Below, piece by piece: positions 35,869 through 39,108 of a DNA stretch of 59,097 bases; within the stretch, counting starts at the first letter, position 1; every line of letters begins with the position of its first letter. The translations under genes were made by a program, and so were the position numbers. Below the pieces are notes generated by a model that was not told the DNA's origin, did no database searches, and was given only the letters and a program-made list of their open reading frames with translations. Source of the stretch: Gemmatimonadota bacterium (GTDB taxonomy: Bacteria; Gemmatimonadota; Gemmatimonadetes; Palauibacterales; Palauibacteraceae). The stretch lies in contig JBGMQU010000001.1 of NCBI GenBank assembly GCA_048060725.1, forward strand, positions 55,996 through 115,092, read 5' to 3'.

Positions 35869-37002
35869 TCACAGGCGCCCTGGAGAGGTCCTGCGGGGGC
35901 CGCGATCACGCCAGATCTTCCACCTGTCCATGACTCTGCTTCCGCGTACCACCACGAAATGGTCGAATTGGGCCACGGTCAAACAGGAGTGGTTTGGCGC
36001 GATCCTGAGTCTGGTACCAACGGGCAGAGAGGCGGACAGTTTCGCGTGTTCCTGGCTCAGCGACACGATCCTCAGGTCGTCATCCAGCTTCCCGCCGGAA
36101 AGGCTCTCGTAAACGCGTCCGTAGTGAACCGGCCGGTCCTTCCCGGCGTCCTTCGACATGACGAGCGCGCCCGCGTCGGCGATGCACACGTCGCGTCCCG
36201 GCTGGGAGGAGACGACGGTGGCGAGCACCGATGTTGCCGAGCGCTCGATTCCGCACGAGCCCAACCGGGTCTGCGTGTAGTCGTAAAGCGCGTAGTTGCC
36301 GGGCCGCGCCTCGTCGATGCCGTCGAGCGACGAGACGAGCGACATACCGGGAGTGGATCCCACCGACAGTGTTCCCGGGTCGATCCCGAGATCGCGCAGA
36401 CGCTGGCCGAACTCGGTCATGACACGACGCTCGGTCTCGGCCACCGTCACGATCGCACCGCGCGACGTTTGATCGTACGTGTGGCCTGCGTGCGTTAGAC
36501 ACCCGCGAAGCTGGAGCGCGGAAGAGTCGGCCAGACGGCGGGCGACGTCGACGGCGGTGTCGGAAAGGGGTTCGACCCCCGCTCGTCCGTACCCGCAATC
36601 CACCTTGATCCAGACCGGCACGTCGATCCCGGACGCTTCCAGGGCCTCGATTGCGGAAATCGTGTCGACCGTGACCGCGAAGTCGGCGATACCGGACATC
36701 TCACGCACCTCGTCCAGACGGGACACGATCAGTGGGAAGGCCCAGGTGATGTCGTCGAACCCGGCGTTCGCGAAGGCCCTCGCCTCTTCGAGCGTCGAAA
36801 CGGTGATGCCACCGGCGCCCCGGTCGCGCTGGAGACGGGCGATCTCGACACATTTGTGGGTCTTGACGTGAGGGCGCAGTCGGACGCCCAACCGGTTCGC
36901 CCGGCTCTGCATGAAGTCGAGATTACTCTCGAGGATGTCCAGATCGAGAAGAAGTGATGGGGTTGGAAGATCCGGAATGCCGTATGGTATGGCGGGATTC
37001 AT
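35869..37002 (-). CDS. DSD1/D-threonine aldolase-type PLP enzyme (alanine racemase fold)
   Basis: TPSLLLD, LRPHVKTHK, GSTP, RPGNY, SQEH, PNHSC. Confidence 0.92.
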   Translation of the reverse strand: MNPAIPYGIPDLPTPSLLLDLDILESNLDFMQSRANRLGVRLRPHVKTHKCVEIARLQRDRGAGGITVSTLEEARAFANAGFDDITWAFPLIVSRLDEVREMSGIADFAVTVDTISAIEALEASGIDVPVWIKVDCGYGRAGVEPLSDTAVDVARRLADSSALQLRGCLTHAGHTYDQTSRGAIVTVAETERRVMTEFGQRLRDLGIDPGTLSVGSTPGMSLVSSLDGIDEARPGNYALYDYTQTRLGSCGIERSATSVLATVVSSQPGRDVCIADAGALVMSKDAGKDRPVHYGRVYESLSGGKLDDDLRIVSLSQEHAKLSASLPVGTRLRIAPNHSCLTVAQFDHFVVVRGSRVMDRWKIWRDRGPRRTSPGRL

Positions 37003-37098
37003 GCAGAAAGGTAGTCTTGGTGACAGGGTTCCGCTAAAATCAATCCGGGTACTTTTGTGGAGTTCTGAGAGGCTTTGGCGGGAGCGCCGAATCTCGAA

Positions 37099-37127
37099 GT
37101 GACCCCCGGCGGTCAGAGGTCGTCTTA
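37099..37127 (+). promoter_or_regulatory. Candidate ECF promoter
   Basis: GTGACC-N16-CGTCTTA; same -10 as 25511-25517. Confidence 0.45.
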
Positions 37128-37171
37128 TCCGCAGAGAAGCAGACATACCGGGGATCGGGCCGGAGGGCCGG

Positions 37172-37723
37172 GTTCCCAGTGATGAGCCGAGCGACGCAGA
37201 GATCGTCCGGGATGTACTTGCCGGCGATGAAGAGGCGTACGCGGTGCTCGTCCGTCGCTACAAGGATGCGCTCTACCGCTACGCGGAACGGATGACGGGG
37301 CGGCCGGACGATGCGGCCGACGTGGTCCAACTGGCGTTCATCAAGGGATACCGGAGCCTGGATCGGTGTCGGGATCCCGAACGCGTCGGAGGCTGGCTGT
37401 TCCGAATCGCCGTCAACCTCTGCAAGGATCAGTTGAAGGGCAGGCGAAAACGGGAAGTGCCTCTCGACGCGGTAGGGCCCATACGGGCGACGCGGGACCT
37501 CCCGGAAGAGGGGGCGGAACGGGCGGAGATTCGAGAGGAAATATACAAGGCTCTCCGGACCTTGAGTGACGAACAACGCGAAGCGTTCGTCCTCAAGCAT
37601 GTAGAGGGATGGTCATATGAAGAGATGGCGGAGAAGCTGGAGGTCTCCGTCCCCGCGTTGAAGATGCGTGTGCATCGGGCGCGGGAGCAGCTACAGGATC
37701 TACTCGAGCACTACCATGAATGA
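37172..37723 (+). CDS. ECF sigma-70 factor (SigW/RpoE-like)
   Basis: SDAEIVRDVLAGDEEAYAVLVRRY, AADVVQ, GWLFRIAVN, LSDEQR, LKMRVHRAR. The conserved N-terminus lies upstream of the first canonical start (GTG 37244). Confidence 0.9.
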   Translation, partial: VPSDEPSDAEIVRDVLAGDEEAYAVLVRRYKDALYRYAERMTGRPDDAADVVQLAFIKGYRSLDRCRDPERVGGWLFRIAVNLCKDQLKGRRKREVPLDAVGPIRATRDLPEEGAERAEIREEIYKALRTLSDEQREAFVLKHVEGWSYEEMAEKLEVSVPALKMRVHRAREQLQDLLEHYHE

Positions 37724-38369
37724 GTCACTGAAACGATATCTGGATGGCGAAGTCGAGGCCGAGAGCCTGACGCCGGAGGAACGGGGTGAGGCGGAGGCCT
37801 GGGAGGCCCTGTTCATTGAGGCGCGCCAGGCCGGGGCCCGGCATGCTCCTGTTGGTCTCGAGTCTCGGATCATGGACTCTGTCCGGGCAGAGAGCCGGAC
37901 GCCGCTCTCTCGCGCGGTCGACTGGTGGGTAAGTCCGAGGCCGATTCGTGTGCGGCCCCTCATCGGACTGGCCGCCGCTGCCGCGATCGGTGCGTTGTTG
38001 TTCCTGCCTTCCGGGCCGTTCGGTTCGAACGTCGTCGAAGACCCCATTGGGGCGACGACCACGATGATTGGCGAGCAGGCCGTGTACGTTCAGTTCGTGC
38101 TCGAGGCGCCCGACGCGTCGAGCGTGGCGGTTGCCGGCGACTTCAACGAGTGGCAGCCCGATGTGGCATTGGTCGATCCCGATGGAGATGGGATCTGGTC
38201 GGGTCGTCTTCTGCTTTCGCCGGGCGTCCACAAGTACATGTTTGTTGTGAACGGCACGGAGTGGATGCCGGATCCGCTCGCCGAGCAGTGGGTCGAAGAT
38301 GGCTTTGGAAACCGGAACTCGGTGCTCGCGATCACCGGGGGAGCCGGTTCGGGTTCGCTCGCACCCTGA
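37716..38369 (+). CDS. Putative anti-sigma factor with C-terminal glycogen-binding (CBM48/AMPK-beta-like) domain
   Basis: Overlaps the sigma stop; N-terminal RYLDGE; TM LIGLAAAAAIGALLFL; VAVAGDFNEW, GIWS, HKYMFVVNG, W-x-x-DP, DGFGNRNSVL. Confidence 0.85.
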   Translation: MNESLKRYLDGEVEAESLTPEERGEAEAWEALFIEARQAGARHAPVGLESRIMDSVRAESRTPLSRAVDWWVSPRPIRVRPLIGLAAAAAIGALLFLPSGPFGSNVVEDPIGATTTMIGEQAVYVQFVLEAPDASSVAVAGDFNEWQPDVALVDPDGDGIWSGRLLLSPGVHKYMFVVNGTEWMPDPLAEQWVEDGFGNRNSVLAITGGAGSGSLAP

Positions 38370-38391
38370 CCATGGGTCGCGAGTCGCGTCG

Positions 38392-39108
38392 ATGAAGTCC
38401 CGGGCGATGATCGGTTTGCTGGCGTCGGTGCTGTTCGTATCACCGCTGCACGCCCAGGACGATCTCGCCCGGGTTCGTTCGCGGTACGACGCGACGACGC
38501 TCGCCCAACTCGAGTTGATCATCAAAGACGCCGAGAACGATGGCGTCCCACGATCCCTCCTGGTCGAGAAGGCGCTCGAGGGGGTGGCCAAACGCATGCC
38601 CGAGGAGGTCGTGGTCGACGCGGTCGACGTATGGGCCGACGAGCTCCGGGCGGCTGTGGCCCTGCTGGGTCGAGGGACCGAGCCGGCGGGGCTCGCGAAG
38701 GTGGCCGAATCCATCCGTCATGGAGTCGACTCCGAGGTCATCCGCCGACTCGCCGGAGACTATCCGGCCGACTACCCGATCATGCTCCAGACCATCGACG
38801 ACTTCGTCCACGCGGGCGTCGAGTTCGAGGAGGCCGAGGCCATGGTGACGGATGCGGCCGAACGAGGATTCCGCGGAGAGGACGTCCTGACCATGTCGGC
38901 GATCCTCCGCCGACTCGTGCGCGAAGGCACGTCTCCGGTCGACGCGGCCGCCTCCATACGGTTGAACATGCGGCGCGGCGGTTTCCCAATTCCGCCTTCG
39001 CCGCCGCCGGGAGGATCGGAGTTTCCGACGAGGACCGGCGTCGGCCGGGTGATCCCGCCACCGCCGCCACCGCCGCCACTGCCGCCACTCCCAAGCGAGC
39101 CGACGTAG
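38392..39108 (+). CDS. Secreted helical hypothetical protein with Pro-rich tail
   Basis: Signal peptide ending LHA-Q; LVEKALEG; poly-Pro C-terminus. Confidence 0.75.
   Translation: MKSRAMIGLLASVLFVSPLHAQDDLARVRSRYDATTLAQLELIIKDAENDGVPRSLLVEKALEGVAKRMPEEVVVDAVDVWADELRAAVALLGRGTEPAGLAKVAESIRHGVDSEVIRRLAGDYPADYPIMLQTIDDFVHAGVEFEEAEAMVTDAAERGFRGEDVLTMSAILRRLVREGTSPVDAAASIRLNMRRGGFPIPPSPPPGGSEFPTRTGVGRVIPPPPPPPPLPPLPSEPT

Follow-up and report, generated by a model that had tools for sequence, protein, structure and literature searches.

The stretch analysed here, hereafter the window, is 59,097 nucleotides (nt) long and comes from a Gemmatimonadota bacterium of the family Palauibacteraceae (assembly GCA_048060725.1, contig JBGMQU010000001.1, positions 55,996 to 115,092 of the forward strand); coordinates are those of the window unless another contig or locus is named. 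Between 37099 and 39108 it carries a module of three plus-strand genes, all intact, which encode an extracytoplasmic function (ECF) sigma factor, a single-pass anti-sigma factor with an outer domain of CBM48 type (CBM, carbohydrate-binding module) and a secreted helical protein, termed the partner below. The module looks more like a monitor of the cell envelope than a starch sensor. Its features are the following:

37099..37125, plus strand: ECF-type promoter, with boxes that are conserved and a spacer that varies in the related loci L001 and L004 and in about 30 genomes of the genus
37162..37174, plus strand: Shine-Dalgarno sequence GGAGG (37162-37166) and conserved start position, GTT in the window (37172-37174), located by comparison with relatives
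37172..37723, plus strand: gene of the ECF sigma factor, sigmaE/SigW-like, start uncertain (Pfam, TIGR02937, PDB sequence matches)
37716..37949, plus strand: predicted cytoplasmic anti-sigma domain, residues 1-78 (helices of the AlphaFold2 (AF2) model, family profile against PDB)
37950..38024, plus strand: single transmembrane helix, about residues 79-103 (Kyte-Doolittle, flank charges, AF2 helix 81-95)
38076..38336, plus strand: periplasmic beta-sandwich of CBM48/AMPK1_CBM type, residues 121-207 (Pfam, AF2, Foldseek, alignments)
38392..39108, plus strand: secreted helical-repeat partner, 238 residues (AF2, presence at 74/74 loci)

The initial annotation of this DNA, made by a model from the letters and their reading frames, had described a sigma gene that overlaps the gene of a 217-residue protein, and this arrangement is confirmed: the two genes share 8 nt, the ATG of the anti-sigma gene (37716-38369) lying in the last sigma codons (context CCATGAATGA), and the partner gene begins 22 nt past the anti-sigma stop codon. 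The domain structure proposed at that time also holds. A cytoplasmic N-terminus and one transmembrane segment in the 217-residue protein are borne out by hydrophobicity and flank charges, the C-terminal CBM48/AMPK-like domain by Pfam scores above the cut-offs, by the AF2 fold and by a Foldseek match to 1z0m, and a secreted helical third protein by a signal-peptide-like N-terminus and an AF2 model with ten helices. What had to be corrected is the beginning of the module, as position 37099, from which it had been counted, belongs to the -35 box of the promoter and is not where the sigma gene starts.

The open reading frame that ends at 37723 matches Sigma70_r2 with 63 bits and Sigma70_r4_2 with 65 bits in Pfam and no other sigma regions. 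With sigma2 and sigma4 domains only, the protein is an ECF (group 4) member of the sigma-70 family, and the general ECF model of NCBIfam, TIGR02937, gives 114 bits against a cut-off of 42.9. Its best sequence matches in PDB, at about 80 bits each, are SigW (5wuq), sigmaE (1or7), SigE of M. tuberculosis and 6in7; the last of these bears the label sigma-H in PDB and we take it to be AlgU.

The anti-sigma protein contains one hydrophobic segment, at about residues 79-103 (Kyte-Doolittle maximum 2.05), in which the AF2 model, built on 46 homologues, places a helix at residues 81-95. Since the flank on the N-terminal side of this segment is basic (+4/-1) and that on the C-terminal side acidic (0/-3), the N-terminus is predicted to be cytoplasmic and the C-terminus periplasmic. 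Residues 1-78 form helices at 3-9, 20-39, 48-59 and 63-72 in the same model, in which residues 1-30 have a predicted local distance difference test (pLDDT) score of 90-95 and residues 31-100 one of 61-78. When a family profile of the first 80 residues was compared with all PDB sequences, the top two matches were RseA-N, taken from its complex with sigmaE (1or7_C, E=0.0095), and RsiW, taken from its complex with SigW (5wuq_C, E=0.026). The model NF052375, named 'antisigma', reached 23 bits against a cut-off of 100, and zf-HC2 of Pfam gave weak matches in 7 of 25 members of the family. The HxxxCxxC zinc motif was not found in the protein, and because residues 1-78 hold no cysteine and a single histidine, the domain, if it belongs to class I, would be zinc-free. 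At the other end of the protein, the tail that follows the CBM48 domain (residues 208-217, 38337-38366), GGAG(S/A)GSLAP, is conserved in the genus and in the nearest relatives and not in more distant members; it might be a recognition tag for a protease or for the partner.

The outer domain, residues 121-207, scores above the Pfam cut-offs of both AMPK1_CBM (PF16561; 36.4 against 26.8 bits) and CBM_48 (PF02922; 23.4 against 22.4 bits), and in the AF2 model it folds as a beta-sandwich with a pLDDT of 94-98. Foldseek matched it to the CBM of AMPK beta1 (1z0m) with a target-normalised TM-score of 0.88 and a root-mean-square deviation of 1.7 Å, and also placed it with SNF1, the starch phosphatase SEX4 and esterases that combine CBM48 with CE1 (carbohydrate esterase family 1), the probability being 1.00 to AMPK beta, SNF1 and SEX4. 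We take the canonical alpha-glucan site of AMPK beta1 to be made up of W100, K126, W133, L146 and N150. According to a hidden Markov model alignment to AMPK beta2 (2f15) and to the family alignment, W100, W133 and N150 correspond to W146, W183 and N201, which are invariant in 46 family members, the equivalent of K126 is M175, a position at which at least 90% of the family have Met, and that of L146 is F197, Phe or Tyr in the family. This is the only AMPK1_CBM domain in the window's genome. The subtype as such is very common, with 14,212 cluster representatives at E≤0.001, and in metagenome proteins of 1400-2100 residues (P0146, P0147, P0202, P0220 and P0248) it is found in tandem arrays of up to 18 copies.

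The partner begins with a signal-peptide-like sequence (MKSRAMIGLLASVLFVSPLHAQ), the signal peptide spanning residues 1-22, and its AF2 model is composed of ten helices with a mean pLDDT of 88 and a predicted TM-score (pTM) of 0.73, while from about residue 196 on the chain becomes proline-rich. It belongs to no Pfam or NCBIfam family, and among PDB folds nothing better than E=0.05 was obtained, those that appeared being designed helical repeats. In the homology search the proline-rich tail swamped the result, which comprised 8000 candidates and 20 close ones, and distant homologues were taken from the neighbouring loci. There are two types of partner tail in the genus (38977-39105 in the window compared with L009-L024): one of the form IPPxPPP..., which occurs in the window, L004 and L002, and a cysteine-containing one, ECGDGQP.SCW...C..MPTRPCPTR, which occurs in many Palauibacter genomes.

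Full-length relatives of the anti-sigma protein were found in 260 of the 401 sampled Gemmatimonadota genomes and in 102 of 147 genera, and the family is present in each of the 20 sampled genomes of the window's genus. A single genome has up to 7 copies, and species-representative genomes together hold at least 519 loci, the proteins of which carry names such as "glycogen-binding domain-containing" and "isoamylase early set domain-containing" in public annotation. Gene neighbourhoods were counted at the best 80 of these at least 519 loci, and those 80, in a scan of the genome collection, were all from Gemmatimonadota. An ECF sigma gene lies directly upstream of the anti-sigma gene at 78 of the 79 loci at which this could be tested, and a homologue of the partner lies downstream on the same strand at 74 of the 74 loci with enough sequence, the six loci without it all ending within about 1.2 kb. 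The three-gene layout of the window is seen at 34 of the 74 loci. At the other 40 (L082-L141; L002:6668-7768) a protein of about 370-420 residues is encoded between anti-sigma and partner, which has a signal peptide, a barrel-like composition and, at its end, a second CBM48, and which is putatively an outer-membrane protein. The four-gene version (as in CP070722, L002) has the same sigma factor, CBM48 anti-sigma and partner, and at some loci the same type of promoter, and it adds a putative outer-membrane barrel with a second CBM48, which is missing from the window's genome: no barrel-CBM48 gene was detected there, where a profile of 30 such proteins found only the CBM of the anti-sigma protein itself.

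The promoter is composed of a -35 box, GTGACC (37099-37104), a variable spacer of 14 nt and the sequence GTCGTCT (37119-37125), which includes the -10 core CGTC (37121-37124); GTGACC-N14-GTCGTCT of the window is the same as the pattern GTGACC-N16-CGTC named by the initial annotation. This pattern, with a variable spacer, proved to be conserved ahead of the sigma gene throughout the genus and at several more distant loci. Both boxes are invariant and the spacer differs in an alignment with two relatives, and the strict pattern precedes the sigma gene at all loci of the genus but L026, where the spacer is one base shorter. The exact pattern occurs once in the window and at 52 sites in 36 genomes of the genus, against 2 sites for a reversed control, and about 30 of the 52 are autoregulatory, that is, they precede the sigma gene. 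From the sequence comparisons we infer that the sigma factor recognises its own promoter.

Which other genes might this sigma factor transcribe? In a genome scan for GTGACC-N16-CGTC, proposed together with the idea of a glucan regulon located elsewhere, three exact sites were obtained in the window's genome, i.e., the module's own promoter, one on contig C77 and one on contig C241, and none of them stands before glucan enzymes. The C241 site lies 47 nt upstream of the gene of a 262-residue protein with a signal peptide (C241:1913-2772, minus strand), the sequence of which is rich in Gly and aromatic residues and barrel-like; orthologues of this gene in four or five other species bear the same boxes with different spacers. 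That the protein is an outer-membrane barrel is a guess from its composition, because it has no match in Pfam or among PDB sequences and the match to PorG is weak (17.7 bits against a cut-off of 130). It was also considered as the detached barrel of the barrel-CBM48 protein of four-gene relatives and was rejected in this role, the profile of 30 such proteins giving 7.9 bits. The gene of the 262-residue protein is followed by those of two further exported proteins of unknown family. Elsewhere in the genus, 12 other sites were inspected, most of which precede genes of lipoproteins, barrel-like proteins or other proteins with signal peptides, and among the sites inspected in the 36 genus genomes no glucan-active gene was found behind a motif promoter. 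Since orthologues of the motif-bearing targets of other species carry no motif in the window's genome, the C241 gene excepted, the regulon is predicted to be small and to vary between species.

In its logic the module comes closest to the sigmaE-RseA-RseB system of E. coli and the SigW-RsiW system of B. subtilis. It shares with them an autoregulated ECF sigma gene followed by an overlapping gene of a single-pass anti-sigma factor with the N-terminus inside, and with the rpoE operon also a third, secreted protein encoded next, in the place of RseB; the nearest sequences to the sigma factor are SigW and sigmaE, the N-terminus of the anti-sigma protein is best matched by RseA-N and RsiW, and the predicted targets are envelope proteins. 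In contrast to RseA and RsiW, the periplasmic domain is here a CBM48 beta-sandwich and the zinc motif is absent, and in contrast to RseB and MucB, to which it bears no similarity, the third protein is an all-helical repeat. The SigI/RsgI pairs of C. thermocellum likewise have a membrane anti-sigma factor with a carbohydrate-binding module at its extracytoplasmic end, and in them the sigma factor is released by intramembrane proteolysis (PMC10328401). However, the sigma factor of the window is a classical ECF protein, closest to SigW and sigmaE and not of SigI type, there is no Pfam match to RsgI_N in the module, and the linker of about 17 residues between membrane helix and CBM is too short to accommodate the autoproteolytic periplasmic domain. 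Moreover, the genes controlled by RsgI are those of polysaccharide-degrading enzymes, whereas here they are apparently those of envelope proteins, and RsgI systems are not known to have an obligate helical partner. With AMPK beta, Sip2 of SNF1 and the CBM48 domains of GH13 (glycoside hydrolase family 13) enzymes the outer domain has in common the fold, two stacking Trp residues and the Asn. It differs from AMPK beta in the exchanges of Lys126 for Met and of Leu146 for Phe, and, unlike AMPK beta and GH13 enzymes, it is anchored in the inner membrane, faces the periplasm and is joined to an anti-sigma domain in place of the kinase scaffold or the glycoside hydrolase.

No characterised example of such a system was known to the initial annotation, and a literature search likewise found no paper on one or on an anti-sigma factor joined with CBM48/AMPK1_CBM; the main text of the 2021 ECF reclassification is silent on it, although the supplementary tables may list the family. 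Pairs of ECF sigma and anti-sigma factors are a major route of bacterial signalling, and the sensed signal is known for few types of sensor domain. The family described here, found in roughly two of every three sampled Gemmatimonadota genomes and often in several copies, joins a known sugar-binding fold, an anti-sigma factor and an obligate partner with a new fold. Knowing the ligand would establish a new kind of ECF sensor domain, would give first access to the envelope biology of a largely uncultured phylum and would supply a compact orthogonal set of promoter, sigma and anti-sigma factor for synthetic circuits.

For SigW, sigmaE of E. coli and AlgU, release from a single-pass anti-sigma factor takes place by regulated intramembrane proteolysis of the latter. 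On this model the module of the window would be an autoregulated three-component envelope switch of the sigmaE/SigW kind, released by regulated proteolysis, a reading to which we give an even chance. The cytoplasmic anti-sigma domain, zinc-free and class-I-like, would keep the sigma factor at the inner membrane, and the sensor would consist of the periplasmic CBM48-type domain together with the secreted helical-repeat protein that is always encoded with it. A periplasmic or envelope signal, most likely a glycan derived from the envelope or a change in the binding of the partner rather than dietary starch, would alter the state of the CBM48 domain and the partner. The anti-sigma protein would then be removed by regulated proteolysis, i.e., by a site-1 cut and subsequently by an M50 site-2 protease, of which the genome encodes several. 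The freed sigma factor would transcribe its own operon from GTGACC-N16-CGTC and a small, species-variable set of envelope protein genes, which in the window's genome would amount to one gene, that of the 262-residue putative outer-membrane protein on C241.

Several points weigh against this switch. Beyond the gene arrangement, topology, fold, conserved promoter, constant partner and distribution, which the analysis shows, the reading is inferred; this holds for binding of the sigma factor, release by proteolysis, what the ligand is and what the partner does. The anti-sigma domain resembles RseA and RsiW only weakly, with E values of about 0.01-0.03. The partner shows no similarity to RseB/MucB or to a known co-regulator in Pfam, NCBIfam or PDB fold comparisons, so that calling it RseB-like would be an analogy of gene position only. 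The regulon prediction is built on exact pattern matches, and about 0.5 extra sites per genome, as estimated from base composition, are expected by chance; indeed, the C77 site (C77:5828-5854, minus strand) has no gene downstream on that strand and for this reason is treated as chance or antisense. Lastly, true alpha-glucan binding would likewise be compatible with the conserved Trp-Trp-Asn platform.

This last point leads to the switch that had been proposed from the sequence at the outset, in which the CBM48 domain would bind a periplasmic alpha-glucan or maltodextrin and the sigma factor would turn on a regulon of starch or glycogen utilisation elsewhere in the genome. Its architecture stands, and in its favour the domain exceeds two Pfam cut-offs, superposes on the glucan-binding CBMs of AMPK beta and on the starch phosphatase SEX4 and keeps W146, W183 and N201 invariant. 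The sensing of a nutrient glucan is nonetheless disfavoured, and we consider it improbable, in view of the Lys126 equivalent being Met, of the envelope genes and no glucan-active ones found behind the inspected motif sites and of the enzymes available. The single GH13 protein of the genome is a GlgB-like branching enzyme with CBM48 and alpha-amylase domains, no further alpha-amylase-family gene was found in the genome, and the neighbour of the branching enzyme gene, read from its N-terminal sequence only, is likely a glycogen synthase (GlgA). Because the sole GH13 enzyme is GlgB-like and stands beside a likely GlgA, this equipment fits the metabolism of internal glycogen and not the uptake of starch. 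Furthermore, the CBM48 modules found on CE1 esterases lack starch binding (PMC8040265), and Palauibacterales are reported to have less polysaccharide-uptake potential and fewer loci for it than their sister orders (PMC10469786). One may also ask if a glycan is needed at all. The CBM48 domain might be purely protein-binding; it would hold the partner and, where the four-gene version is present, also the CBM48 protein of the outer membrane, and loss or capture of the partner would be the signal, in the manner of RseB on RseA. The Met in place of the canonical Lys would suit this arrangement, as would the partner's presence at every testable locus and the position of its gene directly behind that of the anti-sigma factor. 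The CBM of AMPK beta also contacts the kinase domain, which is a precedent for protein contacts of this fold. An invariant platform of solvent-type Trp-Trp-Asn is, however, the usual signature of sugar binding, and the tail of the partner is not conserved, being proline-rich here and cysteine-containing in many members of the genus; a domain that binds protein and nothing else is rather unlikely in our estimation.

A different objection to the envelope switch comes from the start of the sigma gene, by which the module could be seen as inactive or decaying in this genome. The sigma frame is open from 37103 to 37723, behind a stop codon at 37100-37102, and from that stop up to a GTG at 37244 it contains no in-frame ATG, GTG or TTG. 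The 24 residues encoded 5' of 37244 (DEPSDAEIVRDVLAGDEEAYA...) are nevertheless conserved and covered by ECF profiles, which, in the translation from 37181, match from residue 1-3 onwards. The start position, 5 nt past the conserved GGAGG, is GTT in the window and at 12 more of the 20 genus loci (13/20), while others have GTC or GCT and relatives have ATG, GTG, TTG or ATT at the same codon. An error of assembly at GTT is unlikely, because the codon recurs in many independent assemblies. Nine codons upstream of the start position, an in-frame ATH codon (ATA at 37145-37147 in the window) is kept in nearly all members of the genus. As judged from these codons, either the sigma factor would start at a strongly non-canonical codon, or it would start at an upstream in-frame ATH, or the protein would be shorter than its relatives. 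A loss of the start codon, with GTT replacing ATG or GTG, would explain both the missing canonical codons and the difference from the relatives. Yet the genus loci with GTT all keep their frames, the Shine-Dalgarno sequence, the promoter and the conserved N-terminal peptide, which argues for function rather than decay; the three genes of the window are intact, and a start at GTG 37244 would still give full Pfam regions 2 and 4. Decay is thus very improbable. Should GTT indeed serve as the start codon, it would represent a natural case of strongly non-canonical initiation that is conserved across a genus.

A more far-reaching version of the envelope switch can be put forward only tentatively. 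The module would then be an undescribed envelope sensor of three components, characteristic of Gemmatimonadota, in which a starch-binding fold reads an envelope glycan or the partner and the partner acts as an RseB-like gatekeeper with a new fold; the Palauibacter form would be a minimal one that has shed the outer-membrane CBM48 protein and in which the GTT start keeps the level of the sigma factor low.

As to the surroundings of the module, a gene on the minus strand (35869-37146), divergent from the sigma promoter, encodes a protein with Ala_racemase_N and D-serine-dehydratase-like domains. This gene, the sigma module and a FabH-like gene stay in the same order throughout the genus but not in more distant relatives, so that the neighbourhood probably reflects synteny rather than a functional link.

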